Assembly (NCBI GenBank): GCA_964386005.1
Contig: CAYLSB010000015.1
Coordinates: 2,986 to 66,985 of the forward strand
Direction of reading: 5' to 3'
Source: an uncultured Pirellulales bacterium
GTDB lineage: Bacteria > Planctomycetota > Phycisphaerae > Sedimentisphaerales > Anaerohalosphaeraceae
DNA length: 64,000 nucleotides
The first letter of the stretch is position 1, and every line of letters starts with the position of its first letter. The translations under genes and the position numbers were made by a program. The notes beneath the pieces were generated by a model. The model was not told where the DNA came from. It saw nothing but the letters and a program-made list of their open reading frames with translations, and searched no databases. Shown here piece after piece: positions 20,312 to 60,920 of the stretch.

Positions 20312-20332
20312 GAACAAGAGGATACGAGGAAA

Positions 20333-22096
20333 ATGGGATCGCCAATGCCGGTTACTTCGGAAAAGACAATCAGTTCAGCTCAAGGTAAAGACAATGCCCT
20401 GTTCGGGGATTGGCTGGTGAAAAATCAGCGATTGTCTGCGAATGATTTGCATGATGCTCTGCAGGAACAGTCGCGAACGGGGGGAAGGTTAGGCGAGGTT
20501 CTGGTTCGGATCGGAAAGCTGACGGACCATGATGCATCCAAGTCCCTGGCGGATTATCTGGGAATCGAATTTATTCAATTGGACGACTTGGGGATCATCC
20601 AGACCGATGTCGCTCGGAAGGTTCCTGAGACAATCGCCAAGCGATTCTCGCTTGTGGCGCTGGGAGAGACCGAGGGGAAAGTCAAAATCGCGATTACCGA
20701 TCCGCTGAACGTGGTAGCCATCGATACCATCACCGTCAAATTGAAAAAGCAGGTCAAGATGGTGTTGGCCTCGGCCAAGGATATTCAAAGAGCCATCGAG
20801 GTCATCTACCACGGTACCGATATCCAGGAACAGAAGCTGCGGGACCTGGTGGACCTGGAGGTCAGCACGGAAGAGGATGAGGAGGATGTTCAGGAATCAT
20901 CCGGTGCGATCGAAGCGGAAGATGCTCCGGTTATCCGATTCGTCGATTTGCTGCTCAGTCACGCCGTCAAGAGCCGGGCCAGTGATATCCATATTGAGCC
21001 GCAGGAAAAAGGGATGAATATCCGCATGAGAATCGATGGAATGCTGACGGATATGGTTCCTCCCGCCCGAAAGATGCAGGCCGCGGTGATCGCGCGGATC
21101 AAGATCATCTCCGAACTGGACATCGCCGAACGTCGGTTGCCGCAGGATGGACGATTCAAGATCAGGGCGGGGGAGCGGGATATCGATGTTCGCGTGTCGG
21201 TCCTGCCGACGATTTACGGAGAAAAGGTTGTGATGCGTATTCTGGACAAGAATGCCGTTAATCACGATCTGGACAAGATGGGATTCGATCCGAACCTGCT
21301 CGATCAATTCAAACGAATCCTCAAACAGCCGTATGGCATCATCATCGTGACCGGACCCACGGGCAGCGGAAAAAGTACGACCCTGTATTCGGCGCTGAAT
21401 TATCTGCGCGATCCGAAGAAGAACATTACGACGGTGGAAGATCCGGTCGAGTATCGGATGGCGGGCATTAATCAGACACAAGTCAAACCGGAAATCGGAA
21501 TGACTTTCGAGGCGAGTTTACGGGCGATTTTGAGACAGGATCCGAACATTATCCTATTAGGGGAAATTCGCGATAAGGAAACCATGGAGATCGCGATGAA
21601 GGCGTCTCTGACGGGGCATTTGGTGCTCAGCACGTTTCATACCAATGATGCGCCGAGTGCGATCAGTCGATTTGTATATATGGGATTGGAACCGTATCTG
21701 TTGGCCTCGAGCTTGAATCTGATCCTGGCGCAGCGGCTGATGCGGAAAATCTGCGAGCAGTGCAAAGAACCGATCCAGATCGACGATGATGTTCTCAAGC
21801 GGCTTCGATTTGATGCCCAGGAGGCCAAGTCGGTAATTCTGTATCACGGTAAGGGCTGTCCGGCATGCCATAACAGCGGTTATTCAGGACGAGTGCCGAT
21901 CTTTGAGTTTCTGCCGATGACACGGGAAATGCGCGACAAGATCGCCACCGGCGCCGGTGAGGTGGAGATCCGGAAGATGGCCCATGAAAAAGGATTCTGC
22001 GATCTTCTGGATAGCGGAGTTCAGCGGATGAAGGCCGGCCTGACCACGGCCGAGGAAGTCCTGCGAGTAACCTTTACACAGGATGTCGAGGCGTAA
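20333..22096 (+). CDS. GspE/PilB-family secretion ATPase (type II secretion / type IV pilus) with an MshEN-like N-terminal domain
   Basis: Walker A GPTGSGKSTT, Asp box, Walker B, His box and a tetracysteine motif (CEQC...CPAC) are present. The N-terminal T2SSE_N-like repeats are LFGDWLVKNQRLSANDLHDALQEQ and RLGEVLVRIGKLTDHD. Confidence 0.9.
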   Translation: MGSPMPVTSEKTISSAQGKDNALFGDWLVKNQRLSANDLHDALQEQSRTGGRLGEVLVRIGKLTDHDASKSLADYLGIEFIQLDDLGIIQTDVARKVPETIAKRFSLVALGETEGKVKIAITDPLNVVAIDTITVKLKKQVKMVLASAKDIQRAIEVIYHGTDIQEQKLRDLVDLEVSTEEDEEDVQESSGAIEAEDAPVIRFVDLLLSHAVKSRASDIHIEPQEKGMNIRMRIDGMLTDMVPPARKMQAAVIARIKIISELDIAERRLPQDGRFKIRAGERDIDVRVSVLPTIYGEKVVMRILDKNAVNHDLDKMGFDPNLLDQFKRILKQPYGIIIVTGPTGSGKSTTLYSALNYLRDPKKNITTVEDPVEYRMAGINQTQVKPEIGMTFEASLRAILRQDPNIILLGEIRDKETMEIAMKASLTGHLVLSTFHTNDAPSAISRFVYMGLEPYLLASSLNLILAQRLMRKICEQCKEPIQIDDDVLKRLRFDAQEAKSVILYHGKGCPACHNSGYSGRVPIFEFLPMTREMRDKIATGAGEVEIRKMAHEKGFCDLLDSGVQRMKAGLTTAEEVLRVTFTQDVEA

Positions 22097-22272
22097 GTCC
22101 TTTCAATGTAATATTATGCATTCGATCAATCCATTCTCGTTCCAACATATTCCCTCACTGAAATGTCGTTCGGTTTTTTATTGGACTTCATTCTTTTTTG
22201 AAGTATAGTAATTCATGCGGGATGGAAAAATCAATCAGGCGAGAAAGCTATTTGTGATTCATGGAGGCGAAA

Positions 22273-22977
22273 ATGTTCCGATGGACTGGAATGGCAACGT
22301 TCGTATTTGCTGTGGCGATAGGATTGTATGTACCTTCCGCGGAAGCGGGAATAATGAATGGGGATTTTGAAGCTCCGGAAGGGTGGGATTATGCATGGTC
22401 CCATAGTGACAATGTCGAAGATTCGGATCCATACCCTGTTCCCAATGGTGCGATTATTCATGAAACAGACGGGGGGATCAGTTATCTGAGTCAGGCATTC
22501 ACCATCGATCCGGGTGAAACTTCGTTGCGATTCAATCTGCGGTTTGAATACGAGGGCATCAGCGAGACGGAATATTTCTATGCATTCCTTTTCCAGAAAC
22601 CCGGTTTTAATCCGGAGACGACCCCCGATGCATTGCTGTTGGACGGACATGAACCGTTTTATACGGTTGGCAGCAACGAACTTGAAACGGTTCAATCCGG
22701 CGTTCAGGTATCCAGCGTGGAGGGTTGGCAGTGGGAGTGGATGGATGAGTCTGAGAAACTGGGTCATGGATGGAAAGACATGATCATCTCCATACCCGTT
22801 TCAAGCGGCGACGATTTCGTACTGTGGTTTGCGTTAACCAGTACGGATCCGGATATTTTTGCCAATGCCACTTTGGATACCATCGAATTACATCATAACG
22901 TTCCCGAACCGACCTCGATGATATTGGGTGCATTGGGTGTAGGATTGGTCGGCGTTTTCCGGAGGCGGAAATCGTAG
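22273..22977 (+). CDS. PEP-CTERM-anchored secreted protein
   Basis: Signal peptide MFRWTGMATFVFAVAIGLYVPSAEAG and C-terminal VPEPTSMILGALGVGLVGVFRRRKS (PEP motif, TM helix, basic tail). ATG 22273 follows GGAGG. Confidence 0.75.
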   Translation: MFRWTGMATFVFAVAIGLYVPSAEAGIMNGDFEAPEGWDYAWSHSDNVEDSDPYPVPNGAIIHETDGGISYLSQAFTIDPGETSLRFNLRFEYEGISETEYFYAFLFQKPGFNPETTPDALLLDGHEPFYTVGSNELETVQSGVQVSSVEGWQWEWMDESEKLGHGWKDMIISIPVSSGDDFVLWFALTSTDPDIFANATLDTIELHHNVPEPTSMILGALGVGLVGVFRRRKS

Positions 22978-36063: not shown

Positions 36064-37005
36064 TTACGATTCGATCAGGGGTCGATAAAAATCCGACGGT
36101 CTGGGGCCGAGCGTGTTGGTCAGGGTGCCGAGCTTGTCAATGGTGCATTCCATCGTATCGCCGGGTTGGAGAAATCGTCCTGTGGCCATCGCGACTCCGG
36201 CCGGTGTCCCTGTGGAAATCACGTCACCGGGTTCGAGCGTCATCAAGTGGCTGATAAACGAGACGATCTGGTCAACCGTAAAGATCATCTGGGATGTATT
36301 GGCCTTCTGGCGTGTTTCGCCGTTCACCTTCAATTCCATGGTGAGATTTTGGGGATCGGGAATTTCATCCCGGGTGACCAGCCAGGGGCCGAGAGGAAGA
36401 AATCCATCGGACCATTTTCCATTGAGCCAGTCATAGAACTCATCCCAGGGTCGCGGAGTCCTTCCCGCCGAAAAAGTGACGCTGCGGGCCGAAATGTCAT
36501 TGGCGATGAGATAACCCGCGATACAAGAACGCGCATCTTCCGGGGCGATCTGGTGGGCATGACGACCGATCATAACGGCCAACTCGATCTCGTAATCCAC
36601 TTGTTCGCTGTAGGAGGGCCATGGAATCGTCGTCAGCGTTCCCGTCGCTGCGGTCGAGGGCATCAGAAACGGCCTTGGAACTGTGGTTTTATCCGGGCTG
36701 TCTGTGAGTCCAAGGGATCGGCCCGCTTCGCGAATGTGTTCGCTGTAATTTCCCGCCAGGGCAATCAACTTACCCGGCCGGGGGACCGGAGCCATGAATT
36801 TCAATTCGGCGGGATCGAGAAATTCAGCGGCTGTATAAGGCAATTCGGATATAAGATCAAGACAATTCTGGCCTCGGATGAGGATTTCTTTGACACTGTG
36901 AGGATGAAGAGACCCTTTACAGTTGGATGGAATATCGATGATCCCTCGGTCCGTTGCCAGACCGCATGAAATTCGGGGTTCCTTCATATATGATACCAAT
37001 TTCAT
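36064..37005 (-). CDS. Fumarylacetoacetate hydrolase (FAH) family protein
   Basis: Trimmed to MKLVSYMKE... after GGGAGA. FAH-family pattern: KLIALAGNYSEH, VDYEIELAVMIG, ANDISARS and GDVISTGTPAGV. Confidence 0.85.
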   Translation of the reverse strand: MKLVSYMKEPRISCGLATDRGIIDIPSNCKGSLHPHSVKEILIRGQNCLDLISELPYTAAEFLDPAELKFMAPVPRPGKLIALAGNYSEHIREAGRSLGLTDSPDKTTVPRPFLMPSTAATGTLTTIPWPSYSEQVDYEIELAVMIGRHAHQIAPEDARSCIAGYLIANDISARSVTFSAGRTPRPWDEFYDWLNGKWSDGFLPLGPWLVTRDEIPDPQNLTMELKVNGETRQKANTSQMIFTVDQIVSFISHLMTLEPGDVISTGTPAGVAMATGRFLQPGDTMECTIDKLGTLTNTLGPRPSDFYRPLIES

Positions 37006-37139
37006 GTCCACGTCTCCCGGTTGGGTTTCGTACATGATCATACCCGGATTCGATTCTGAAGGAAAGATGCTCCGGAAAAATTTCAAGATTTTTATTGCCC
37101 TCCCTGATTCCTTCGGTTAGATATCCTTTTGTTCTTTGG

Positions 37140-37360
37140 AAATGGGTGTTCGATTTCGGGTCCGGGACCGCTGGGTTTCGGATTTCAAAAGGGAATACGG
37201 TGAAATACCGTAACGGTCGCGCCGCTGTGAGCGTCCCATGTGATCCGCCTTGGCGGATGGCAAGTCCCGACGGCATGAGTCCCACTGTCCGAGTTTTTGG
37301 ATGGGAAGGGCGTCGTCGGGTAGGATGCGAGTCAGAAAACCTGCCTGAAATTGTGAGCAC
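37140..37360 (+). promoter_or_regulatory. Cobalamin (B12) riboswitch aptamer
   Basis: Core strings: AAAAGGGAAUACGGUGAAAUACCGUAACGGUCGCGCCGCUGUGAGC (37187-37232), CCCACUGUCC...GGAUGGGAAGGGCG (37281-37312) and the B12 box GAGUCAGAAAACCUGCC (37329-37345). A weak candidate promoter lies upstream: TTGCCC (37095-37100), a 17-nt spacer, then TAGATA (37118-37123). The boundaries are approximate. Confidence 0.85.
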
Positions 37361-37444
37361 AGAGATTGTTCTCGCGTGTGGAACAACGGTGCAAGTCCAT
37401 AGGCATTTCTCGGCGATCCATCGTCGCCTCGGCTTGAAATAGAA

Positions 37445-37478
37445 ACCGTCGTTCTCCTCGTGGGAACGACGGTTTTTT
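37445..37478 (+). terminator. Intrinsic terminator of the riboswitch expression platform
   Basis: A 10-bp stem ACCGTCGTTC / GAACGACGGT with a 9-nt loop, followed by TTTTTT. No plus-strand gene lies upstream, so it belongs to the leader. Confidence 0.75.
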
Positions 37479-37746
37479 ATTGGCCTTGATTACGACGTCT
37501 GCGCACGACAGGCGGACCACGAAAGGGAGGGTGTTGATCATGATGAAACAATAAGACGGAATTGAGGAATAACGAAGGTTTGGATGGATACCATCCGGGA
37601 ATCTTGTCCGAACGAAATATCCAGAAGCCATTTCTATTTCCACAAGAAGCCCGAAAGGGCTGCGGAAGGCGAGCGAGCGTTGCGGCCGAATTTCTGCCGC
37701 GGCCGTGACGCCCTCGCTGTGGGTAGAGAACAATAAGGAAAACATC

Positions 37747-38505
37747 ATGAAATACGGAATTATGATTGCAGGCATTGTATTTGTATGTTATGGACAAATG
37801 ATTGCAAGTATTGAAACAATAGCCGACTTCGACGATCTTGTATTGCCCGCTGAATCGTATTGGAACGGATCGGAGGGTTCCGGGAGCTTTGCGTGTGGCA
37901 AGGCCGTGTTCAATAACCTGTTTACCGACTGGGGAGGCGGGATTACTTCATGGGAAGGTTTCGCCTATTCCAATCGGACGGATACATCCATCACCGGATT
38001 CGACGGTCAATATACGGCCGCTGTCGGTTCCGCTCACAATGGATCGAATTATGCCGTCGGATATGCGGGTTTCACGATCGTACCGACCTTGACGTTGAAT
38101 CATCCGAGTACTCTGTCGGGATTGTATGTGAGCAACAATATGTATGTGGATTCCATTCTTCGTCAGGGCGATCCAATGTTTGGAATCGAGCCATTTTCCG
38201 ATGGGGACTGGTTTCTTCTGACGATCACCGGCAAAAATGGTTCTGGAGATGCCACAGGAATACGGCAGGTGTATCTGGCGGATTTCCGCGATGGCAAACA
38301 AACCATCCTTGGCGATTGGCAGTATGTCGATCTGTCTTGTCTGGGAATGGTGGTGTCTCTGGAATTTACATTGTCATCGTCGGATATGGCCCCGTGGGGA
38401 ATGAATACCCCGGCTTATTTTGTGATGGACACCATTCTTCCTGAACCGGCGACGATCGTATTGTTTGCGTTGGGAAGCTGGTGTTTCATCGGGCGGAAAA
38501 AGTAA
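37747..38505 (+). CDS. DUF4465-like secreted protein with a PEP-CTERM anchor (candidate B12-binding surface protein)
   Basis: Trimmed to MKYGIMIAGIVFVCYG after AAGGAAA. DUF4465-like strings: FDDLVLPAESYWNGSEGSGSF, WEGFAYSNRTD, GSNYAVGY, DWFLLTITG, VYLADFRDG, WQYVDLS, MNTPAYFVMD. It ends in LPEPATIVLFALGSWCFIGRKK. Confidence 0.75.
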   Translation: MKYGIMIAGIVFVCYGQMIASIETIADFDDLVLPAESYWNGSEGSGSFACGKAVFNNLFTDWGGGITSWEGFAYSNRTDTSITGFDGQYTAAVGSAHNGSNYAVGYAGFTIVPTLTLNHPSTLSGLYVSNNMYVDSILRQGDPMFGIEPFSDGDWFLLTITGKNGSGDATGIRQVYLADFRDGKQTILGDWQYVDLSCLGMVVSLEFTLSSSDMAPWGMNTPAYFVMDTILPEPATIVLFALGSWCFIGRKK

Positions 38506-38506
38506 T

Positions 38507-39670
38507 ATGAAGCGGACGGTTGTTCTTCTATTCCTGGGCACGGCCGTTTGGGCTGGGCCCTATAATGAACCGGGAGTGTCCGGATGGGTTGACGCGGGTT
38601 TCCATCCGGCCCCGCCGCCCGGTACGCCCGGATACCTTCGACATCCCGATCCCAACTCGATTCGTATTCATCCCGTCTATCGGGGATGGGTTACCGCGTG
38701 GTCGGATTACCAGCCCAGCGATACGGAATGGTATCCGTCATTCGGATGGGATGATCCCTCCGATGTGATCGGGCCGGCAACGGGTAACCATTTCGATATT
38801 GTCAGTCTTGGGGATTTGGATGATCAGGAACTCGCCGCGGGAAAGTCTCCGGGGCGGATCACCTTGTGTTTCGGCGATCCAAACAATCCGAATGATGAAG
38901 CGAGGATACGAAATGGTCGGGGATACGATTTTGCCGTATTTGAAAACGGTTTTTTGTCGGACTATAGTACCCCGGGTGGTTCGATTGCCGGACGAATGCT
39001 CGCGGAGCTTGCGTTTGTCGAAGTGTCCACGGACGGAATCCTCTTTGCTCGTTTTCCTTCCGTGTCGCTTACAGACGGCCCTATCGGACCGTATGGGACA
39101 ATCGATATTACCAATCTATACAATCTTGCCGGGAAACATCCCAACGCCGGGGGGCGGTGCGTCGGAACACCGTTTGACCTGGATGACCTGACTACCCACC
39201 CATTGGTTCAGGACGGCCTTGTCGATCTGAATCATATTCGGTTCGTGCGGCTGGTGGATATTCCCGGTAACGGTTCGTTTTCGGATGCCGCGACATGCCA
39301 GATGGATCCCCTTTCGTATGATCCCAATCAGGATCCCCATTACAGACCGTATGTCGCCGATCATGCTGTGTATGACGCATGGTTAACGGTCGGTTCCGGC
39401 GGCTTTGATCTGGAGGCCGTGGGTGTTTTGAATGAACAACAGTACAGCGCCGATATCGACCTGAACGGCCAGGTGGATATGGAAGATTTGGCTTCGCTGG
39501 CTTCGTCATGGAACACGAGGTTCGGTCAAGCCGGATATATTCTCCGATGCGACCTGAGCCGTCCGAGGGATTGGGTGGTGAATTTGGACGACGTATGGCT
39601 GTTTGCCGAACAGTGGTTATCCATCGAAGAATGGCGGATATCCGCAGTGCGTTCCGGAGACAAATCATGA
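38507..39670 (+). CDS. Secreted hypothetical protein with a C-terminal dockerin/EF-hand-like tag
   Basis: ATG 38507 lies 1 nt after the upstream stop. Signal peptide MKRTVVLLFLGTAVWAG. A conserved-looking core (GYDFAVFENGF, AELAFVEVSTDG, GTPFDLDDL, IRFVRLVDIPG, GGFDLEAVGV) is followed by DIDLNGQVDMEDLASLASSW. Confidence 0.6.
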   Translation: MKRTVVLLFLGTAVWAGPYNEPGVSGWVDAGFHPAPPPGTPGYLRHPDPNSIRIHPVYRGWVTAWSDYQPSDTEWYPSFGWDDPSDVIGPATGNHFDIVSLGDLDDQELAAGKSPGRITLCFGDPNNPNDEARIRNGRGYDFAVFENGFLSDYSTPGGSIAGRMLAELAFVEVSTDGILFARFPSVSLTDGPIGPYGTIDITNLYNLAGKHPNAGGRCVGTPFDLDDLTTHPLVQDGLVDLNHIRFVRLVDIPGNGSFSDAATCQMDPLSYDPNQDPHYRPYVADHAVYDAWLTVGSGGFDLEAVGVLNEQQYSADIDLNGQVDMEDLASLASSWNTRFGQAGYILRCDLSRPRDWVVNLDDVWLFAEQWLSIEEWRISAVRSGDKS

Positions 39671-40464
39671 GACGGCCTGGTTTTTCTCTGATTGAAATGG
39701 TCGTCACCATGATGCTTCTGGCGATTGTAGCGGCGCTTCTTGTTCCCGCTCTTCAGGCGGCCCGACGGCAGACGCGGAGCGTCATGTGTCGAAGCAACCT
39801 TCATCAGTTGGTGTACGCAAACATGTCTTACACGGTAGATAATGATGGTTACTATGTTCCCGCGGCCAGGGATCTGTGGGATCAGGCCGGATTGTATCGG
39901 TGGCACGGGGCTCGACGGAATTTGGAGGAACCGTTTAATCCGTTGCGAGGTCCTTTGGCGGCATATCTGGATGGCGGCCGAGTCAACGAATGTCCGGAAA
40001 AAATCCGGTTTCGGCGGGGCGGACTCTGGGAAGAGAATTTTGAGCAGGGCTGCGGCGGATACGGCTACAATATGACCTATCTGGGCAGCCGCCTGTGGGA
40101 AGGCGATCCCGATCCGGACCGCTGTTACGGGCGGACGACCCGATCAACCGAGGTGAATTCCCCAGGGCAAACGCTGATGTTCGCCGATTGTGCCCTGAGC
40201 CGCGAGGGGGGGGGCTTTATCGAATACTCCTTTGCCGAACCGCCCTATACCGTGATTCGCGGCAAGGTCATGACCGGATTCTACATGTCGCCGACGCTTC
40301 ATTTCCGTCATCAGGACCGGGCCAATATCGGATGGACCGACGGGCATATCGAATCGCGACCGATGGCTTCCGTCGAACAATACAATGTCTATGGCGTCGA
40401 TTCGGCGGCCATGTCCCTCGGGTGGTTCGATCCGGTGGATAACAGCTTGTTTGACCTGCGGTGA
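39667..40464 (+). CDS. Prepilin-type N-terminal cleavage/methylation protein of the H-X9-DG (DUF1559-like) family
   Basis: ATGA overlap with the upstream stop. MRRPG/FSLIEMVVTMMLLAIVAALLVPALQAARR is a class III signal with Glu at +5. C-terminal HQDRANIGWTDGH fits H-X9-DG. Confidence 0.8.
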   Translation: MRRPGFSLIEMVVTMMLLAIVAALLVPALQAARRQTRSVMCRSNLHQLVYANMSYTVDNDGYYVPAARDLWDQAGLYRWHGARRNLEEPFNPLRGPLAAYLDGGRVNECPEKIRFRRGGLWEENFEQGCGGYGYNMTYLGSRLWEGDPDPDRCYGRTTRSTEVNSPGQTLMFADCALSREGGGFIEYSFAEPPYTVIRGKVMTGFYMSPTLHFRHQDRANIGWTDGHIESRPMASVEQYNVYGVDSAAMSLGWFDPVDNSLFDLR

Positions 40465-40512: not shown

Positions 40513-41283
40513 ATGATCGCAATCCATTCAATCCGAAATATTTTTGAACCCATCCGATGGGGTATGCGGGGAATCAATCATCTTCTCTGGCCGACAATAT
40601 GTTTCGGATGCCGACGCCGCGCCGATGAGTTGGAACGATTGCTATGTCAGGCGTGTTGGCAGGATCTCATCGCTTCCTGCGGAGGAGATTATTGTCCTGC
40701 CTGCGGACGTCAGGCGAGTCGGTTTGGTTTGATTGCCGGGCGATGCGGCGATTGCACGGGTCGGGAATTGATTTTTGACGGCATTGCGCGGGCCGGGGTC
40801 TATCAAGGAACGTTACGGCGGCTCATTCTGGCCATGAAATTTCAGGATGGCGGCGAATTGATTCTGCCTTTGAAGAACCTGTTGAACGCGGCTTTCGAAG
40901 CGGCCGTCTTCTACGATCAAATCGATTATTGGGTTCCCGTCCCGCTTCATTGGCGAAGACGGTTTTCCCGTGGTTTCAATCAGGCGCGCCTCTTGGCCGG
41001 AGCGATGAATCATCCATCTGCCAGGATCAGCGATGATCTGGTTCGTATTCGGAATACCCCGACTCAGTGGAGTCTCGATCCCGCGCAACGGAGACGGAAT
41101 GTTCGCGGAGCATTTGCCGTTCGAGACGGGCACAATTTTTCAAACAAACGGGTCTGTTTGGTCGATGATATCACTACGTCCAATGCAACAATCAATGAGT
41201 GCTCGCTGACGCTGAAGCAAGCCGGAGCGACAAAGGTCTTTGTCCTCGTTGCCGCTGTCGCCATGCAGGATCGGGACGAGTAA
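40513..41283 (+). CDS. comF: ComF family protein (phosphoribosyltransferase-like)
   Basis: N-terminal Cys pairs (CFGC...CQAC, CPACG...CGDC) and a C-terminal PRTase loop (VCLVDDITTSNATI). Confidence 0.8.
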   Translation: MIAIHSIRNIFEPIRWGMRGINHLLWPTICFGCRRRADELERLLCQACWQDLIASCGGDYCPACGRQASRFGLIAGRCGDCTGRELIFDGIARAGVYQGTLRRLILAMKFQDGGELILPLKNLLNAAFEAAVFYDQIDYWVPVPLHWRRRFSRGFNQARLLAGAMNHPSARISDDLVRIRNTPTQWSLDPAQRRRNVRGAFAVRDGHNFSNKRVCLVDDITTSNATINECSLTLKQAGATKVFVLVAAVAMQDRDE

Positions 41284-42991: not shown

Positions 42992-43117
42992 GAATCCGAT
43001 AAGCGGATTCACACGGGGTTTGACGATTCCGTTTCAGGTCGATATAATCACGGCGAATAATCCCGGATCGGAATCCTTTGGATTGTGATCAGACGAAATG
43101 GTTCTCAGGGAACGCCA

Positions 43118-45661
43118 ATGACCATGATACAGTCAATACAACAAGGTGCCTGGTTTCTATGTGGTTTTGTGATTTCCTCTCTGGCGATGGCTCAAACGCC
43201 CAATCCGGACCAGGCGTTGCCAACCTCGTCTCCGGATGTCAAGAAAAGTCCCGTGCGATCCACCGGAATATCTCCGGTCGCCGATCTTCCGCGGGATTTG
43301 TTTTCGCCGCAGGCCGCCATGGCTTTTGCGAAATGTGCCTATGAACTCTATCGTGCCTCCGATGCGACCGATGCCGATGTGCTTCAGGCAAAGGTCTTTC
43401 TCTATGCCGCCCTGGTGTTGGATCCGAGAGCGACGTATGTGATGGCGGATCTGATTCGTGTTTTGACCGGAATCCCGGATCGCGATTTTGGCGGTGAGAT
43501 CCAGTGGGCATTGCACGCCTATGCGGACGATCCGGCTCTGGATATGGAAATCGCCAATCGGGCCGCCCAGTATCTGCATGACCGACTCCAGGATCGTCCG
43601 CGGCGGGAACAGCAATACACCAAGCTGCTGGAAATCGCGTCGACGCGCAATCGCATGTTCTCGGCCGAAATCGCTCGACGAATCGGCCTATTGATGGCCG
43701 AAAAACCAGACTTTGAAGGCGCTGAAAAGACTCTATTGTTTGCCTATGCCAATAATCCCTATAGTTCGGAAATCTTTTCGACGATACAATCGATCATGGC
43801 CAAACAGAACATGGCGTTGCGCTCGGAGGTGGTCCTGCAATTTATGCGTCGCAGCATTCAAGCCGATCCGGTGGATGTACAAACGGCGGTGAATTTCGCC
43901 GCCTTGGCGCAGCGAATCGGAGTCGTCGATCACGCGGCGGCCGGATTTGACTATGCCGCCGCGGCGTACCGGTATTGGAATCCGCAAACGCCGCTTCCCG
44001 CCGAATTGAACCGAACCCTGGCCCTCGCTCACTACAACGATCCCAACACGCGAAATCAGTGTCTTGTGGTCGCCGAGGACGTGCGCAAATCGGGCGAGTT
44101 GGATCTTCTGGTCGAGGCCTATGCGGGACGGGCCGCTGAAAAACTCGGGCGCTCGAACCAAGCCCGCGAAATTCTTTCTGTCGCGGCGGCCCGTGCCGAG
44201 AAAGCATTGGCTGAGGATCCCGCGACGGCTCCAGCCGGTCCCGAACTCATGGCGTGGTTTTATGCGTTTGCCGATCCCAGTCCCGAAAAAGCTCTTGCCT
44301 GGGCGAATAGAGCCCGTGGAACCTCGCCTCAGTCGGAAACCGTCAAGGCCCTCTTTGGATACGTCCTGGCCATGAATTCTCAACCGGATTTGACCGCCGA
44401 ATTTGCGAAGGATCTTTCCGATAGGATTCCGGTCGCCGCGATGGCGATGGCTCTGGTCAAATTGTCCGAGGGTGAGAAAGACTCCGCGATCAACCTGTTC
44501 AAAAATGCGATCCGGATGGATGGCTCAACCCTGGTTGCCGACCATGCCCGTCAGTGGCTGAAGGAACAGGGCAGCGAATTCGTTTCTCCGGAGGATGTCG
44601 AAAAATGCCGGAATGCCATCCAATTGGAGTTTCATGAATCGGCTTTGCCGGTTTTTTCACCGGCATCCAAACGATTGGTCGCCGAATTCAAATTGCGGGG
44701 TTCCGATTTATCCTACGGCCGCCCGATCGAAATGAACCTAATCATTCGAAATCCTTCTTCGGAGCCGTTGATCATTTCAGAGGATGGAATCCTTAAGGGA
44801 CGATACCGTATCGATGCGGTCGTCCGGGGCGACCTATCCGTTGAAATCCCTCGCTTAATTGAACGTCGGATTCAACCGTCACGTCTGATCATGGGCCCGT
44901 CCAAAGAGTATCCCGATGGCCGTTTCATGGCGATTCCGCTTGACGTCGATACCGGCCGGCTGCATCCAATCCTTTGGGGCCATCCTCAGGCGAGTCTCGA
45001 TATCGAACTGATCGCCTACCTGGATCCGGTATCGGATGATGCGGGACATGTTCGCAATTCCCTGCCGGATATTCCTCCGGTTCGAATCCGCTTCAAACGA
45101 CCGGGAATCAAACTAACCCGCGATTTCCTGATGCAGCGGCTGGAATCCGTGGCCAGAGGGCAGTCTTCCCAGAAGATTCTCGCAGCCGAAGTATGTACAG
45201 GCCTGTTGTATGAGCAAATGGATAGGGATCGTTCCGGTGCCCAGTATCGTTTTATCCAGGTAGCGCCTGATGTGTATTATGACGCCATCCGTCGGTGTCT
45301 GATGGATGACGATTGGAAGGTTGTTTTTCAGACCCTCATGGCCCTGAATCTGATTTCCTCTCCGATCCCGTTTGAACTGACACAGGCCGTTTCCCCGTTA
45401 TTGCAGAATACCAATTGGCCGGTTCGAATGATGGCGTTGAAGATTTTATCCCGGTCTTCCGGCCAGAGCTTCCAGCAGGTACTTGACTGGTCGGCCTCTT
45501 CCGATGAGCATCTTCTGGTCCGGGATTTGGCCGTCTCTCTTGGAGGAAAGGTCACCGAGAAGGCCCCGATCCTTCCATTGTCCGATCCGGCAATCTTACC
45601 CCCGAGTTCCGACGTGACAATATCCGCACCAGGTACGGATACTTCAAAGCCAATTCAATGA
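43118..45661 (+). CDS. Large secreted hypothetical protein (TPR-like N-terminal half, HEAT-like C-terminal end)
   Basis: Signal peptide MTMIQSIQQGAWFLCGFVISSLAMA. The sequence looks helical and repeat-like. I recognise no specific family. Start trimmed from GTG 43085. Confidence 0.5.
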   Translation: MTMIQSIQQGAWFLCGFVISSLAMAQTPNPDQALPTSSPDVKKSPVRSTGISPVADLPRDLFSPQAAMAFAKCAYELYRASDATDADVLQAKVFLYAALVLDPRATYVMADLIRVLTGIPDRDFGGEIQWALHAYADDPALDMEIANRAAQYLHDRLQDRPRREQQYTKLLEIASTRNRMFSAEIARRIGLLMAEKPDFEGAEKTLLFAYANNPYSSEIFSTIQSIMAKQNMALRSEVVLQFMRRSIQADPVDVQTAVNFAALAQRIGVVDHAAAGFDYAAAAYRYWNPQTPLPAELNRTLALAHYNDPNTRNQCLVVAEDVRKSGELDLLVEAYAGRAAEKLGRSNQAREILSVAAARAEKALAEDPATAPAGPELMAWFYAFADPSPEKALAWANRARGTSPQSETVKALFGYVLAMNSQPDLTAEFAKDLSDRIPVAAMAMALVKLSEGEKDSAINLFKNAIRMDGSTLVADHARQWLKEQGSEFVSPEDVEKCRNAIQLEFHESALPVFSPASKRLVAEFKLRGSDLSYGRPIEMNLIIRNPSSEPLIISEDGILKGRYRIDAVVRGDLSVEIPRLIERRIQPSRLIMGPSKEYPDGRFMAIPLDVDTGRLHPILWGHPQASLDIELIAYLDPVSDDAGHVRNSLPDIPPVRIRFKRPGIKLTRDFLMQRLESVARGQSSQKILAAEVCTGLLYEQMDRDRSGAQYRFIQVAPDVYYDAIRRCLMDDDWKVVFQTLMALNLISSPIPFELTQAVSPLLQNTNWPVRMMALKILSRSSGQSFQQVLDWSASSDEHLLVRDLAVSLGGKVTEKAPILPLSDPAILPPSSDVTISAPGTDTSKPIQ

Positions 45662-46003: not shown

Positions 46004-46078
46004 GGCCCCATCGTCTAGGCAGGCCTAGGACACCGGGTTTTCAACCCGGCGACAGGGGTTCAAATCCCCTTGGGGCTA
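46004..46078 (+). tRNA. tRNA-Glu (anticodon UUC)
   Basis: Hand-folded cloverleaf. Acceptor GGCCCCA/TGGGGCT (G1-U72 wobble), D arm GTCT...AGGAC, anticodon stem CCGGG/CCCGG with loop TTTTCAA (UUC), T arm AGGGG TTCAAAT CCCCT, discriminator A. It closely parallels E. coli tRNA-Glu. CCA is not encoded. Confidence 0.9.
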
Positions 46079-48557: not shown

Positions 48558-49787
48558 TCAGATGCCGGGTTCAACGTCATTTTTCTCTTTCAATTGTCGG
48601 GAGCTGAATGGGTCCGGTTTTGTCGCTTCAGGATCCGCCGGCCGTCCGACGGTTTCATGAATCAACTCCGGTTCGGGAAGACCCGTGCGGCAATCCCACC
48701 AAAATCCCGGCGGGTGGCTACGAAACAGAAAAGAGCTTACAAGGGAAAGAGAATCTGCGATTTCAAGATCAGTCCGTTGTTCGAGGTGCGAGGGAATTTC
48801 CGTTGAAAGGATGGATTGTGCCTGATGAAGCATTGTCGAAACCGTCTCCGGTTCAAAATCATCCAGCGAATAAATCAATCCTTTGTAAATCAAATAAGCC
48901 GAAAAAGTCTGGAATTTTTTCTTCTCCGGTGGCTTGAGGATACGGAAGGATCGATCTACATGCAGAATCGACATCTCCGATACATCCGTCATCCATCGAA
49001 ACCAGTCCGGTTGAAATTCCCGGAGTTGATCCATGCATCGTTTGGTTCGTGCCGCCTGCTCAAATCGCATAGCCGTGGCGTCGCATTTCATCGTCTCATT
49101 CAGGATATTCATCACGGCATCCGTCTTTCCCGAAGCCATTTCAACCGCCAGATTGAGTTGTCGGATGTACTCCTCGCGCGGGATACCCCCGACGCACGGA
49201 GCCGGACAGGTTTCCATTTGCAGGTAGGGACAGCTTCGTGCCTGTTCGGACGAATCGATCAAGTCCGGCCTCTGGCAAAGCCCAAACGCGCGAACCAAAA
49301 CGTCAATCGTGCGTACGGCCGCTTTTCGTCCGGGAAAGAGCCCCATCGTTTTCCGCGAGAGGGAATCCCGGCTCGTCGCCGGGTGGGAGGCGAGAGAAAA
49401 CTGCGGCCACCGGTGTGAAAGATCGATTTGAATCAGATACGTTTTCGGTAACGATATTCTCTTGCGATATCGCCGGCCGTACAGACGCTTGGCAATAGGC
49501 AAAAAATCCACATGACAGCCGAACTCGCATCCGCATCGCCGAAAATAGACCGACCGCACGACCGGATTCAGACGGGCTTTACGGGTTTTCGGCTGGTTGG
49601 GGTCCGCGGCAAGTTTGGCCAAAGTCGTCCGTCGCAGATGGCTCGCCATCAGCAACTGGACCGGTACGCCATCTCCATCCGTAAATAAAACGACGCCTCG
49701 TTCGGAAGGAATCTCCGCGGATCTTGTCTGGAGCTCTTCCGGAGATCCGTCCCATTCAAGATGACCGTCGAACAGATCCGAAAACAT
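48558..49787 (-). CDS. UvrC N-terminal-half paralogue with a degenerate GIY-YIG motif
   Basis: Collinear with the UvrC N-half: GVVLFTDGDGVPVQLLMASHLRRT (compare GVYxxxDxxGxxIYVGKAxxLxxR), GLFPGRKAAVRTIDVLVRAFGL, and RSCPYLQMETCPAPCVGGIPREEYIRQLNLAVEMASGK...MRFEQAARTKRCMDQL (Cys-rich and UVR-like segments). It has no C-terminal RNase-H-like/HhH half. Confidence 0.6.
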   Translation of the reverse strand: MFSDLFDGHLEWDGSPEELQTRSAEIPSERGVVLFTDGDGVPVQLLMASHLRRTTLAKLAADPNQPKTRKARLNPVVRSVYFRRCGCEFGCHVDFLPIAKRLYGRRYRKRISLPKTYLIQIDLSHRWPQFSLASHPATSRDSLSRKTMGLFPGRKAAVRTIDVLVRAFGLCQRPDLIDSSEQARSCPYLQMETCPAPCVGGIPREEYIRQLNLAVEMASGKTDAVMNILNETMKCDATAMRFEQAARTKRCMDQLREFQPDWFRWMTDVSEMSILHVDRSFRILKPPEKKKFQTFSAYLIYKGLIYSLDDFEPETVSTMLHQAQSILSTEIPSHLEQRTDLEIADSLSLVSSFLFRSHPPGFWWDCRTGLPEPELIHETVGRPADPEATKPDPFSSRQLKEKNDVEPGI

Positions 49788-53759: not shown

Positions 53760-55184
<1,425 letters not shown>

Positions 55185-55238
55185 GATTTCAATGCGTATG
55201 AACGGCCGCGCGTTGCGGCCGTTGGAGCCGATACGATG

Positions 55239-55272
55239 GATCCCCTTACCTCCTGTAAGGGGATCTTTTTTT
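55239..55272 (+). terminator. Rho-independent terminator after gdhA
   Basis: A 10-bp stem GATCCCCTTA / TAAGGGGATC with a 7-nt loop and seven T. It is preceded by a second GC-rich hairpin at 55201-55223. Confidence 0.8.
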
Positions 55273-55314
55273 GCCGTCCGTTTCATGATACACTGATATG
55301 TAAAACCATGTTCA

Positions 55315-57912
55315 ATGAGGGAAACCATGGAACGATATCCCAGTACCGGCATAAATCCTCTGGATGAAGTCCTCGGCCGCCTCCAATACGGCGACAACGT
55401 CGTCTGGCAGGTCGATGATATCTCCCACTACAAAGAGCTGGTGATCCCTTACGTCAAACGGGCCCTGGCCGAGAAACGAAAGATGGTGTATGTCCGCTTC
55501 GCCAACCATGAGCCGCTCCTGGAACCGTGCGAGGGATTGTCCATCGTCCATCTGGATGCCGATGTGGGTTTCGAATCCTTTTCCACCCAAATCCACAACC
55601 TCATTACCGATAGGGGGATCGGCGCCTATTATGTGTTCGATTCCCTTTCCGAATTATTGTCCGCCTGGGCCACCGATCTGATGGTCGGCAATTTTTTCAT
55701 GGTCACCTGTCCCTACCTTTACGAACTCGATACCATCGCCTACTTCGCGCTGCTGCGCGACTACCACGCCTATCAGACCGTCGCGCGCATTCGAAGCACG
55801 ACCCAGCTTCTTCTCGATGTGTATAAGCTGGAGGGACAACGGTACATCCATCCCCTCAAGGTCTGGAACCGATATTCCCCCACGATGTTTCTGCCGCATC
55901 GAGATGAGGGTATGCAACTGGAACCCGTGACCAACAGCGTCGATGCGGCCCGCTTGTTCTCGTATATCTCCGATCGTGCCCGTGCCAGCACCCGCCGCAA
56001 AATCGACTTCTGGGATCGTCTCTTTCTCAACGCCGAAGAAATGCTGGACCAGTCCGCCGCCGATCCCCAGGTCGAACGGACCGTCGATCAGATGTGTCGC
56101 GTCATGATCGGCCGCGAAGACCGCATGGTCTCACTGGCCAAACAGTATTTCTCTCTCCGCGATCTCCTGGATATCAAGGCCCGTCTGATCGGGACCGGCT
56201 ACATCGGCGGCAAGGCCGTCGGCATGCTTCTGGCACGCAAGATCCTCGCCGTCGATTCCGATTTCGACTGGAAAGAGGTTCTCGAAAAACACGACTCGTT
56301 CTACATCGGTTCGGATATCTTCCATACCTACATTGTGCAAAATGGCCTCTGGAAAATCCGGATGGAACAGAAAACCAAAGAGGGCTACTTTGCCCGTGCC
56401 GGCGAGCTGGCGGCGGCCATCCTCAAAGGGAAATTCCCGACCGAGATCAAGGAACAGTTCATGGAGATGATCGAATATTACGGCCAGTCCCCGATCATCG
56501 TCCGTTCCAGCAGTCTCCTGGAGGACAGTTTTGGAAACGCCTTCGCCGGAAAATACGAAAGTATATTTCTGGTCAATCAGGGCAGTCCCGAAGACCGCTA
56601 CCAGCAATTCGAAAACGTTGTCCGCAAGATCTATTCCAGCACGGTCAATGAGGATGCGCTCACCTATCGGCTGCAACGGGGACTGGATCAGGCCGACGAG
56701 CAGATGTCGCTTCTCGTTCAGCGCGTTTCCGGCACCCATCACGGCCGGTACTTTTTCCCCGATGTCGCCGGCGTGGGCGTATCGTTCAATACGTTTGTCT
56801 GGAACCGCTCGATGGATCCCGAAGCCGGCATGGCCCGCATCGTCATGGGTCTCGGTACCCGCGCTGTCAACCGCGTTGAGGATGATTACCCGCGGATCGT
56901 CGCGATGGATGCCCCGCTGGTTCGCCCGCACTCGGCCGTGGATAACCTCCGACAGTTTTCCCAGCGGTACATGGATGTGCTGGATCTGGCCGCAAACAAG
57001 CTGGATGCGATCCCCGTCAAAAAAATTCTCAGCGCCGAACAGAATCCTCTGAACAGTCGGATCGCCATTCGCGATGCCGAGGCCGAAAACCGCATGCGGC
57101 AATTGGGCCTTCCATTTGAACCGCAGTGGATCCTTACCTTCGATGACCTGTTGTCCCAAACGGAAATCGTCCCGATGCTTCGTCGCCTTATGGAAACCCT
57201 GGAATATCGCTACCAATATCCCGTCGATATTGAATTCACGATCAACTTCGCCGAAGATCAATCCCCCCATATCAACTTGCTGCAATGTCGTCCGCTTCAG
57301 ACACGAGGCCTGGGTCGCCCGGTCCAGATCCCGCAAAACCTTCCATCCTCTCAGGTGCTGTTCCGGACCACAGGCAGTTTCATGGGCGGATCAATTTCCG
57401 AGTCCATCCGCCGGATTGTGTATATCGATCCGGCCGGATACCTTGCCTTGCCCCTCCAGGATAAATACGCGATCGCTCGGCTCGTCGGCAAACTCAATCA
57501 CCTCATCGAAGGTCCCCTTGAACAAACTACGATGTTGATGGGTCCCGGCCGATGGGGTACCACCACGCCCTCTCTTGGTGTTCCAGCCCACTTCGCGGAA
57601 ATCAATCGTTTCGCGGTCCTTTGCGAGTTGTCCTACCCCTCCGGCAATCTGATGCCCGAACTGTCCTACGGAAGTCACTTTTTCCAGGATCTTGTCGAGA
57701 GCGGAATTTTTTACGTGGCCCTGTTCTGCGAAAAATCCGATGTGGTCTTCAATCGTCAGCACCTCCTGCTGTGCCCCAACCAACTCGCTGATTTGATTCC
57801 GGAAGCGCATCCCTATGCGCCCGTGGTTCGAGTCTGCGATACCGAAAAATTCAATCTGCAATTGATGGCCGACATCTTGACCCAGACGATGGTTTGCTTT
57901 AAAAGTATCTGA
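55315..57912 (+). CDS. PEP/pyruvate-binding (PPDK N-terminal-type ATP-grasp) protein with an N-terminal P-loop-less KaiC/RecA-like domain
   Basis: The N-terminus STGINPLDEVLGRLQYGDNVVWQVDD...MVYVRFANHEP...YYVFDSLSEL is KaiC-like but lacks GxxGxGKT. The centre reads GTGYIGGKAVGMLLARKIL...IVRSSSLLEDSFGNAFAGKYESIFLVN (the PPDK_N / PEP-utilizer nucleotide-binding type). Confidence 0.75.
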   Translation: MRETMERYPSTGINPLDEVLGRLQYGDNVVWQVDDISHYKELVIPYVKRALAEKRKMVYVRFANHEPLLEPCEGLSIVHLDADVGFESFSTQIHNLITDRGIGAYYVFDSLSELLSAWATDLMVGNFFMVTCPYLYELDTIAYFALLRDYHAYQTVARIRSTTQLLLDVYKLEGQRYIHPLKVWNRYSPTMFLPHRDEGMQLEPVTNSVDAARLFSYISDRARASTRRKIDFWDRLFLNAEEMLDQSAADPQVERTVDQMCRVMIGREDRMVSLAKQYFSLRDLLDIKARLIGTGYIGGKAVGMLLARKILAVDSDFDWKEVLEKHDSFYIGSDIFHTYIVQNGLWKIRMEQKTKEGYFARAGELAAAILKGKFPTEIKEQFMEMIEYYGQSPIIVRSSSLLEDSFGNAFAGKYESIFLVNQGSPEDRYQQFENVVRKIYSSTVNEDALTYRLQRGLDQADEQMSLLVQRVSGTHHGRYFFPDVAGVGVSFNTFVWNRSMDPEAGMARIVMGLGTRAVNRVEDDYPRIVAMDAPLVRPHSAVDNLRQFSQRYMDVLDLAANKLDAIPVKKILSAEQNPLNSRIAIRDAEAENRMRQLGLPFEPQWILTFDDLLSQTEIVPMLRRLMETLEYRYQYPVDIEFTINFAEDQSPHINLLQCRPLQTRGLGRPVQIPQNLPSSQVLFRTTGSFMGGSISESIRRIVYIDPAGYLALPLQDKYAIARLVGKLNHLIEGPLEQTTMLMGPGRWGTTTPSLGVPAHFAEINRFAVLCELSYPSGNLMPELSYGSHFFQDLVESGIFYVALFCEKSDVVFNRQHLLLCPNQLADLIPEAHPYAPVVRVCDTEKFNLQLMADILTQTMVCFKSI

Positions 57913-60556: not shown

Positions 60557-60920
60557 CGTACTCTCCTCAAGGGTGATTTTTCTTGTCGAAACCGCGTTGA
60601 ACTGGTATCGCCGCCGGTTCACACAACGCATAGAAAACATGAAACCATTCACGAATACAAAAACAATATAAGGGATTTATTCTGATACACAATATCTATT
60701 ATGTTGTACGCTATAGTACGCAAATTGACATTATCCATTTCAACGATTGAAACCAAACCCTGCTCCAAAAGGTACTACGCATTATACCAAAAATCCTAGG
60801 GTGATGTCAAGATTATTTATACCTTGGAAAGGGGTCAAATTTCAAATTGACCCGCTTCCGGGAAAACGATACGATCCCTCTGTCGCGAGTAGAGAAGAAT
60901 ACCGGAAGTCCCTGTTGAAG

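Follow-up and report, generated by a model that had tools for sequence, protein, structure and literature searches.

A cobalamin-riboswitch cassette linking a BtuJ-type DUF4465 protein to an unannotated surface family and a pilin-like protein in a Phycisphaerae bacterium: a probable system for corrinoid capture

Organisation of the locus

The three-gene cassette described here lies on contig CAYLSB010000015.1 (assembly GCA_964386005.1) of an uncultured Pirellulales bacterium placed by GTDB in the Phycisphaerae, and was analysed within a stretch of 64,000 nucleotides (positions 2,986 to 66,985 of the forward strand; hereafter the window, whose numbering is used throughout). A cobalamin riboswitch is followed on the same strand by three open reading frames (ORFs), which encode a DUF4465 protein with a PEP-CTERM tail (ORF i), a secreted beta-sandwich protein with a dockerin-like C-terminus (ORF ii) and a protein with a prepilin-type leader (ORF iii) (Table 1). 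An earlier reading made from the letters alone (the sequence-only reading) had described the three ORFs as tightly coupled and the sole upstream gene as divergent, and the coordinates bear out both statements; a single nucleotide separates ORF i from ORF ii, ORF ii and ORF iii share an ATGA overlap, and the gene calls of public contigs carrying identical proteins agree (252, 387 and 265 aa). We consider the cassette to be a B12-repressed operon for the extracytoplasmic capture of corrinoids, a reading to which we give a probability of roughly 0.7, and the evidence for each of its parts is set out below.

Table 1. Features of the cassette, its leader and the gene upstream (window positions)
Feature	Positions	Strand	Basis or remark
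FAA-hydrolase-family gene, divergent	36064-37086	-	only gene upstream of the riboswitch
Cobalamin riboswitch aptamer	37141-37362	+	RF00174, 82.1 bits, E 1e-18, model positions 1-189 of 189
Small hairpin directly 3' of stem P1 (UUGUUCU / GGAACAA)	37366-37386	+	in minimum free energy fold of 37363-37480
Candidate antiterminator	37380-37456	+	GGAACAACGGU (37380-37390) with terminator 5' arm (37445-37456); duplex -12.6 kcal/mol
Terminator hairpin and T6, expression platform	37443-37478	+	read from sequence; fold -22.7 kcal/mol
Leader of 268 nt, terminator to ORF i start	37479-37746	+	AAGGA 8-12 nt ahead of ATG
ORF i, 252 aa: signal peptide, DUF4465 (BtuJ-type beta-jellyroll), PEP-CTERM tail	37747-38505	+	PF14717, E 2e-45
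ORF ii, 387 aa: signal peptide, beta-sandwich core (about 20-310), dockerin-like C-terminal module (about 310-375)	38507-39670	+	AlphaFold2 model, profile match
ORF iii, 265 aa: prepilin-type leader, long N-terminal helix, Cys/aromatic-rich conserved body, H215-X9-DG226	39667-40464	+	PF07963, TIGR02532

Cobalamin riboswitch and expression platform

A covariance-model search of the window matched the Rfam family RF00174 over its full length, far above the gathering score of 31.5 bits, and the three riboswitch strings picked out in the sequence-only reading lie at exactly the positions it had given; the last of them, the B12 box (37329-37345), is read within the aptamer. Downstream, ACCGTCGTTC (37445-37454) pairs with GAACGACGGT (37464-37473) across a loop of 9 nt, the T6 run occupies 37473-37478, and the folded hairpin reaches to 37443 at its 5' end, so that the stem and U6 terminator proposed at 37445-37478 is real by sequence as well as by fold. 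This terminator was missing from the output of a consensus terminator scanner only because the scanner limits loops to 8 nt.

The element GGAACAACGGU nearly duplicates the 3' arm of the terminator and is able to pair with the 5' arm. In the minimum free energy fold of a nascent transcript lacking the terminator 3' arm this antiterminator pairing is present; in the fold of the full transcript GGAACAACGGU is instead locked in the small hairpin beside P1, which makes that hairpin a candidate anti-antiterminator. The predicted folds thus point to a conventional arrangement of anti-antiterminator, antiterminator and terminator. A similar platform, defined as a hairpin of -18 kcal/mol or stronger followed by T5-9 no more than 330 nt downstream of the aptamer, accompanies 41 of the 53 related aptamers examined, whereas among 400 random 330-nt stretches from the same loci 16 (4%) have one. 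Together these data strongly support a genuine cobalamin riboswitch whose expression platform appears to be a conserved intrinsic terminator; with such a platform, B12 sufficiency should abort transcription ahead of the genes, and scarcity should permit read-through.

The full aptamer, B12 box, terminator hairpin with U-tract and alternative antiterminator pairing are all shared with the classical transcription-terminating RF00174 riboswitches upstream of btuB and cob operons, whereas the window element controls other genes and is separated from the first of them by an unusually long leader. A second RNA element in this leader was considered and rejected; no Rfam family matched it at E 1 or better, and the sole signal was a moderate excess of structure over shuffled sequence (z -2.95). 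The leader also holds a mini-ORF, ATGATGAAACAATAA, at about 37540.

The DUF4465 protein

The product of ORF i matches PF14717 (DUF4465) over profile positions 5-176 of 176 with 155.7 bits against a gathering threshold of 25, as the sequence-only reading had anticipated; among PDB sequences it matches BtuJ1 (9fct, E 9e-20), D5EK51 (9hmu_A, E 1e-16) and BtuJ2 (9i2l). The accompanying identification of DUF4465 with BtuH has to be corrected, because the literature places PF14717 at BtuJ1 (BT1491) and BtuJ2 (BT1957) and treats BtuH as separate (PMC13616437); the BtuH paper mentions neither a DUF nor a Pfam family. In Bacteroides thetaiotaomicron, BtuJ1 is surface-exposed, strongly repressed by B12 through a riboswitch and needed for growth at 0.4 nM B12 (PMC13616437). 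A 2026 study reported in vitro B12 binding by six further DUF4465 proteins, three of them from the Planctomycetes-Verrucomicrobia-Chlamydiae (PVC) superphylum, namely A0A518BTS0 of Mucisphaera calidilacus (Phycisphaerae), D5EK51 of Coraliomargarita akajimensis (PDB 9HMU) and A0A840VJ45 of Haloferula luteola (PMC13398666). In that study the HI loop (GTPAYF/NTPAY), which carries the B12-contacting tyrosine, is the most conserved ligand-contacting element of DUF4465 (PMC13398666). The corresponding loop of ORF i is MNTPAYF (residues 219-225), and 25 cassette homologues show no variation at T221, P222, Y224 or F225, in a family with a mean column identity of 49%.

The C-terminal end of ORF i, LPEPATIVLFALGSWCFIGRKK, scores above the cut-off of TIGR02595 (17.0 versus 16) and just below that of the Pfam PEP-CTERM model PF07589 (20.4 versus 20.7 bits), so the PEP-CTERM anchor named in the sequence-only reading passes one curated model and narrowly misses the other; the same kind of tail is carried by 27 of 33 unfused cassette homologues. 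The N-terminus, MKYGIMIAGIVFVCYGQMIAS, contains no canonical L-x-[GA]-C lipobox of the kind expected for Bacteroides-style lipoprotein anchoring. ORF i therefore shares with BtuJ1 and BtuJ2 (PDB 9FCT and 9I2L) its Pfam family, the NTPAYF HI loop, predicted export, an upstream cobalamin riboswitch and an expected induction at low B12, but differs in having a putative PEP-CTERM/exosortase-type anchor where the Bacteroides proteins have a lipoprotein anchor. The PVC proteins of the 2026 study resemble ORF i in combining a single DUF4465 domain with a signal peptide within the same superphylum; unlike the cassette described here, they are reported with no mention of a PEP-CTERM anchor, an ORF ii family or a pilin-like partner (PMC13398666), and the neighbourhoods of DUF4465 are given there as Pfam co-occurrence only (ABC transporters, TonB-dependent receptors and a beta-propeller family, with 84 proteins lacking a Pfam-annotated neighbour). 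The assignment of ORF i as an exported BtuJ-type corrinoid binder is, on these sequence comparisons, strongly supported. Its companions in the window, the beta-sandwich/dockerin-like and pilin-like proteins, are not part of the Bacteroides relay.

An unannotated surface family

Neither Pfam nor NCBIfam recognises ORF ii, even at E 10, and yet the protein belongs to a very large family; a protein search matched it to more than 6500 clusters at 90% identity, and a family profile recovered at least 3228 clusters at 50% identity, 413 of them at E 1e-30 or better. The AlphaFold2 model of the protein (predicted local distance difference test score, pLDDT, 76.6; predicted template modelling score, pTM, 0.81) has a mostly beta core, for which a Foldseek comparison gave a weak and non-significant likeness to CBM32/discoidin-like beta-sandwiches (template modelling score, TM, of about 0.5 on the target). 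That the core might be a divergent DUF4465 jellyroll was ruled out by alignment of the family profiles (hhalign probability 0.9%), and a relationship to BtuG, BtuH, BtuK, BtuF or any other solved B12 binder was likewise discarded, a profile search of all PDB sequences having matched a dockerin alone.

The latter match concerns the C-terminal 65 or so residues, which resemble the type II dockerin 2y3n_B both by family profile (E 1e-5) and by Foldseek (TM 0.82, root mean square deviation 2.0). This module and the cellulosomal dockerins, as represented by PDB 2Y3N chain B, have in common a duplicated calcium-binding D-x-[DN]-x-[DN]-G loop and helix pattern; in contrast to those dockerins, ORF ii has no Dockerin_1 match and no known cohesin partner. 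The sequence-only reading had called ORF ii dockerin-tagged, and the label is reasonable because structure and profile both match 2y3n_B, although the Pfam dockerin models (PF00404 and related) find nothing in ORF ii even at E 10. Docking of this module onto the pilin-like protein was also entertained and rejected, as co-occurrence gave it no support; an EF-hand-like module is missing from 18 loci with the pilin-like gene and present in 9 loci where no such gene is adjacent, and the many cassettes of the former kind indicate that the module is not an obligate docking partner of the pilin.

Elsewhere the homologues of ORF ii end in PEP-CTERM, RTX or dockerin-like modules. Many from Planctomycetia and some from cyanobacteria carry a PEP-CTERM tail of their own, and in Okeania, Microcoleaceae and Leptolyngbya JSC-1 (L046, L050 and L058) RTX calcium-binding repeats are joined to them, a sign that they may leave the cell by type I secretion. 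These cyanobacterial homologues lie behind cobalamin riboswitches, near metE, CobW-family GTPases and WD40/PD40 propeller proteins. Such anchors, taken with the operon contexts described below, argue that proteins of the ORF ii family, whether secreted or held at the surface, belong to the B12 regulon in many phyla.

The pilin-like protein

The N-terminus of ORF iii, MRRPG|FSLIE, scores above the cut-offs of both prepilin models (PF07963, 26.8 versus 21.2 bits; TIGR02532, 25.7 versus 16.3), and near its C-terminus the sequence H215-QDRANIGWT-D225G226 is a literal H-X9-DG motif. Both features had led the sequence-only reading to place ORF iii among the H-X9-DG/DUF1559 prepilins, a placement of which the leader, the motif and a remote homology stand and formal membership does not. 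ORF iii falls below the cut-off of DUF1559 (PF07596, SBP_bac_10; 12.9 versus 23.3 bits, profile positions 1-27 only) and of TIGR04294 (H-X9-DG; 12.8 versus 19 bits, residues 213-229), and PF07596 is found in none of its top 120 homologues, many close members of which are named H-X9-DG proteins by the Joint Genome Institute. The homologues form a tight orthologous group (55-69% identity; mean column identity 62%) with invariant aromatic and cysteine residues in the motifs RWHG, FEQGCGGYGYN, EYSFAEPP and HFRH. When the family was aligned by hhalign with five bona fide DUF1559 proteins, a probability of 99.1% was obtained (E 2e-18) over 205 columns that reach the H...DG end. Since the curated cut-offs are failed and the profile alignment is nevertheless so strong, we regard ORF iii as a sister family or remote relative of DUF1559, and not as a member by the curated tests. 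It shares with the DUF1559/H-X9-DG prepilins of Planctomycetota the prepilin leader, the long helix, a similar length and the C-terminal motif, but stands apart in its orthologous group and its own invariant motifs.

The relationship is reinforced by four Pirellula-type loci (Rhodopirellula sp. SWK7 L064, L075, L047 and L069), in which a bona fide DUF1559 gene takes the slot of the pilin-like gene, with matches of E 1e-46 to 1e-57; RF00174 stands ahead of all four cassettes with 48.6-101 bits, the lowest score being that of L075, where the element is cut by a contig end. With these loci and the profile alignment, the proposal that the cassette offers a functional handle on DUF1559 has gained real support.

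The G|F-x-x-x-E motif and a hydrophobic helix are also found in the pseudopilins of type II secretion (GspG/H/I) and in the type IV pilins of competence (ComGC-GF). The likeness of ORF iii to them is confined to about the first 60 residues, no equivalog model comes near its cut-off, and, unlike the genes for those pilins, that for ORF iii lies outside any secretion or pilus assembly cluster.

Immediately downstream, 49 nt past ORF iii, begins a ComF-family gene (40513-41283, plus strand) that encodes a double zinc ribbon and a phosphoribosyltransferase-like domain. No terminator was detected between the two genes. The same order of pilin-like gene and comF is seen in about 20 Phycisphaerae-type loci, whereas Verrucomicrobiota do not have it. 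ComF proteins function with competence pseudopili; co-transcription of ORF iii with comF may or may not be meaningful.

Conservation of the cassette across genomes

The linkage was assessed in a sample of 80 species-level genome loci that had been retrieved by ORF ii alone, and a cobalamin riboswitch lies upstream on the same strand in 63 of them. In a first batch, Rfam found a same-strand RF00174 element in 9/9 loci, 1.1-1.5 kb ahead of ORF ii; an nhmmer aptamer profile built from these matched upstream on the same strand in 50 of the 80, Rfam added 13 among distant lineages, and seven of the nhmmer hits were confirmed by Rfam. Altogether 29 of the 38 loci scanned were confirmed at the Rfam gathering threshold. 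Among the 17 loci without a match, 10 have less than 1 kb of upstream sequence; a few are genuinely negative, for example L045, L051, L059, L060 and L071. In a Desulfospira metagenome-assembled genome (MAG; L037) the ORF ii homologue is preceded by no cobalamin riboswitch and, about 2 kb upstream on the same strand, by a c-di-GMP-I riboswitch (5925-6016 of that locus, 45.6 bits). Some members of the ORF ii family may thus be under different control.

The order DUF4465, ORF ii and full-length ORF iii homologue (E 1e-40 to 1e-112) recurs in about 37 loci. A prepilin-type gene directly follows ORF ii in 46 of the 68 loci that have at least 900 nt of downstream sequence, and 41 of these genes belong to the ORF iii family. 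The reverse look-up gave the same picture; 6/6 ORF iii homologues lie directly after an ORF ii-type gene, five of them with a recognised DUF4465 gene or fusion upstream and the sixth interrupted by an assembly gap. The sequence-only reading had allowed for a linkage peculiar to this genome, and these counts show that it is not. The adjacency of the pilin-like gene extends through Phycisphaerae, Planctomycetia, Verrucomicrobiota (L043, L051, L057, L059, L065 and L067), Kiritimatiellia (L053), Lentisphaerales (L055) and Sumerlaeota (L049), and it is not merely inherited Phycisphaerae synteny, because the flanking genes differ in the other lineages.

A single polypeptide combines DUF4465 with ORF ii in 15 loci, and fusions of about 600 aa carrying PF14717 were also recovered in the protein search. 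A short linker joins the ...NTPAYF..D end of the former to the mature ...PYTE... start of the latter, and both the PEP-CTERM tail of the ORF i part and the signal peptide of ORF ii are gone. These recurrent fusions suggest that ORF i and ORF ii associate physically, with ORF ii supplying the attachment where the PEP-CTERM tail has been lost.

The fusions also bear on whether ORF ii and ORF iii handle the vitamin at all. Both could be generic surface, adhesion or envelope proteins that are induced by B12 starvation, with ORF i alone touching the vitamin; cobalamin riboswitches also control B12-independent isozymes such as metE. The occurrence of the ORF ii core in many multidomain adhesin-like proteins, its position beside metE and cobW rather than transporters in cyanobacteria and the c-di-GMP-I riboswitch ahead of the Desulfospira homologue are all consistent with such a role. 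We nonetheless hold it to be very unlikely, given that the in-frame fusions look independent of one another, that adjacency has been kept across six phylum- or class-level lineages with differing flanks, and that every ORF iii homologue looked up sits in a cassette. ORF ii and ORF iii are, on comparative grounds, well supported as conserved and co-regulated partners of the binder in PVC bacteria.

One scaffolded MAG departs from the pattern. An N run splits its cassette (L084, 4154-5013; L079, CP070678.1), and the C-terminal 143 aa of ORF ii together with ORF iii lie 1.5 Mb from DUF4465 and ORF ii on CP070678.1, probably as an assembly artefact or a second copy.

Possible roles in the capture, display or storage of corrinoids

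We propose that the window cassette acts in the following manner. At low B12 the operon would be read through past the terminator, and an exosortase, acting on the PEP-CTERM tail, would fix ORF i to the cell surface, a task that falls to the lipid anchor in Bacteroides. ORF ii would bind physically to ORF i and serve at the surface as its co-receptor or tether. ORF iii, once cut by a prepilin peptidase, would act from the inner membrane or a pseudopilus as a link spanning the envelope. Its task would be either to relay the corrinoid inwards, to a transporter whose genes lie elsewhere, or to build and present the capture complex. Fibre-assisted uptake in this scheme would be purely conjectural. 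The view of the locus as a B12-repressed surface scavenging module, already taken in the sequence-only reading, is in our judgement largely right, carried by the riboswitch, the DUF4465 family and the recurrent linkage; the BtuH identity and the DUF1559 membership that were attached to it do not hold up, and the unconventional route is overstated.

A number of observations weigh against this interpretation. The cassette itself has no gene for a transporter, an exosortase or a prepilin peptidase. The core of ORF ii is unrelated to DUF4465 and has no significant structural neighbour (Foldseek against the PDB, none at E 0.001 or better), and since it also occurs within very large PKD/Ig/LRR/RTX surface proteins, the cassette may have taken up a surface module of general use that has no specificity for B12. 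No ligand site is recognisable in ORF ii or ORF iii, and the AlphaFold2 model of ORF iii is too poor to interpret (mean pLDDT 41.8), with only the long N-terminal helix confident. Nine related loci with upstream sequence, among them L037, lack the cobalamin riboswitch. Lastly, the FAA hydrolase gene keeps its place ahead of the cassette in many related loci (L003, L006, L013, L014, L018, L020, L022, L024 and L033 among them), and this shared synteny, like that of comF, implies that part of the conservation within Phycisphaerae is inherited gene order.

BtuB, BtuG and BtuFCD were absent from the 43 window ORFs scanned, as the sequence-only reading had stated, and the cassette differs from the Bacteroides btu operons in lacking these as well as BtuH and BtuK. 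An unconventional mode of capture, which that reading had put forward, is however not a conclusion that a 64-kb window allows. The same families share operons elsewhere with components of conventional uptake. In Thermodesulfobacteriota (L073) a riboswitch (111 bits) is followed by DUF4465, a TonB-dependent receptor and ORF ii, with no pilin-like gene. A Lentisphaerales MAG (L055, 2060-9032) has a riboswitch, a TonB-dependent receptor, a second riboswitch, a 1083-aa fusion of two DUF4465 domains with the ORF ii core, and an ORF iii homologue. In Sumerlaeota (L049) the riboswitch (102.6 bits) precedes ORF ii, a pilin-like gene, Peripla_BP_2 and ABC_tran, the last two BtuF/BtuD-like, and the operon has no receptor gene. 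Because of such TonB-dependent receptor and BtuF/BtuD-like neighbours in other phyla, a cassette that serves as an accessory front end to a conventional transporter appears more likely than a stand-alone unconventional pathway.

The same neighbours lend themselves to a reading in which ORF iii has no part in import. As a dedicated type II secretion-type pseudopilin it would only export or display ORF i and ORF ii, without contact with the vitamin, and uptake would proceed through BtuB and BtuFCD encoded elsewhere. The prepilin leader and the N-terminal likeness to GspG/GspH/ComG pilins fit this role, as does a type II/IV secretion ATPase gene in the window (20333-22096; PF00437, E 3e-138), about 15 kb from the cassette, and so does the Thermodesulfobacteriota cassette, which has its receptor and dispenses with the pilin-like gene. 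General secretion pseudopilins, however, are normally encoded with the secretion machinery, and a separate one for each substrate operon is not the norm; the conservation of ORF iii exceeds that of the binder itself, with many invariant aromatic and cysteine residues beyond the pilin helix; and in Sumerlaeota the ORF ii and pilin-like pair stands immediately before the BtuF/BtuD-like genes with no outer-membrane receptor. On balance we think this reading rather unlikely.

The Sumerlaeota operon also keeps alive a TonB-independent version of the proposal. In PVC bacteria and Sumerlaeota, ORF ii and the H-X9-DG/DUF1559-type pilin-like protein might form a pilus or pseudopilus route by which BtuJ-captured corrinoid crosses the outer envelope without a TonB-dependent receptor, and the DUF1559 family at large might then consist of substrate-specific uptake adaptors on a shared pilus-like machine; we offer this as a long shot.

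BtuJ1 has been described as an extracellular corrinoid reservoir, a function proposed for Bacteroides cells and vesicles (PMC13616437), and by analogy the window cassette might hoard corrinoids at the surface, by storage or competitive sequestration, with no dedicated import step. The cassette's want of a transporter gene would agree with this, as would the surface anchors and RTX secretion repeats of ORF ii homologues. Repression by intracellular B12, on the other hand, is sensible only if the captured vitamin enters the cytoplasm, other phyla have the families in operons that also encode TonB-dependent receptors and BtuF/BtuD-like proteins, and an inner-membrane-anchored pilin-like partner would be left unexplained. 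Storage without import is for these reasons improbable, and we retain capture for uptake as the preferred interpretation.

Relation to known systems

The cobalamin riboswitch and the BtuJ-type binder are of kinds already known. Three points are new relative to the literature examined: the binder is apparently anchored by PEP-CTERM, the B12 regulon includes a widespread and unannotated family (ORF ii) that fuses to DUF4465, and in PVC bacteria pilin-like proteins of the H-X9-DG/DUF1559 type accompany these proteins systematically. No description of this cassette was found in the literature on DUF1559, H-X9-DG, pseudopilins with cobalamin or Planctomycetes cobalamin riboswitches, and the papers found that mention DUF1559 assign it no function. 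DUF1559/H-X9-DG proteins are among the most expanded and least understood families of Planctomycetota, and their place in this cassette ties them for the first time to the context of a definite ligand. The ORF ii family is placed in the B12 regulon of Planctomycetota, Verrucomicrobiota, Kiritimatiellia, Lentisphaerae, Sumerlaeota, Cyanobacteria, an alphaproteobacterial MAG and Desulfobacterota-type MAGs. Nothing is overturned by this; two large families of unknown function become testable candidates for a link with B12, and BtuJ-type capture outside Bacteroidota, with an apparently different anchor and other partners, bears on the competition of PVC bacteria for corrinoids in sediments, soils and digesters. 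Cultured carriers make the hypothesis testable, namely Rhodopirellula sp. SWK7, whose DUF1559 variant comprises riboswitch, ORF ii, DUF1559 and DUF4465, and Stieleria magnilauensis TBK1r with riboswitch and ORF ii. Among complete genomes, the cassette is present in CP070806.1, CP070728.1, OY763926.1 and NZ_CP036432.1.

Other features of the window

At 18899-22977 on the plus strand a hybrid histidine kinase/response regulator, the type II/IV secretion ATPase and a PEP-CTERM protein are encoded in a row, and a further PEP-CTERM protein (59573-60652, minus strand) brings the number beyond ORF i to two. From the ATPase and the PEP-CTERM proteins, the organism evidently uses pilus/secretion-type ATPases and exosortase sorting; no exosortase is encoded among the 43 ORFs scanned. 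Three large ORFs have no Pfam match at E 1e-4, of 858 aa (43085-45661, plus strand), 409 aa (48558-49787, minus strand) and 521 aa (53832-55397, minus strand). A tRNA gene occupies 46004-46078.

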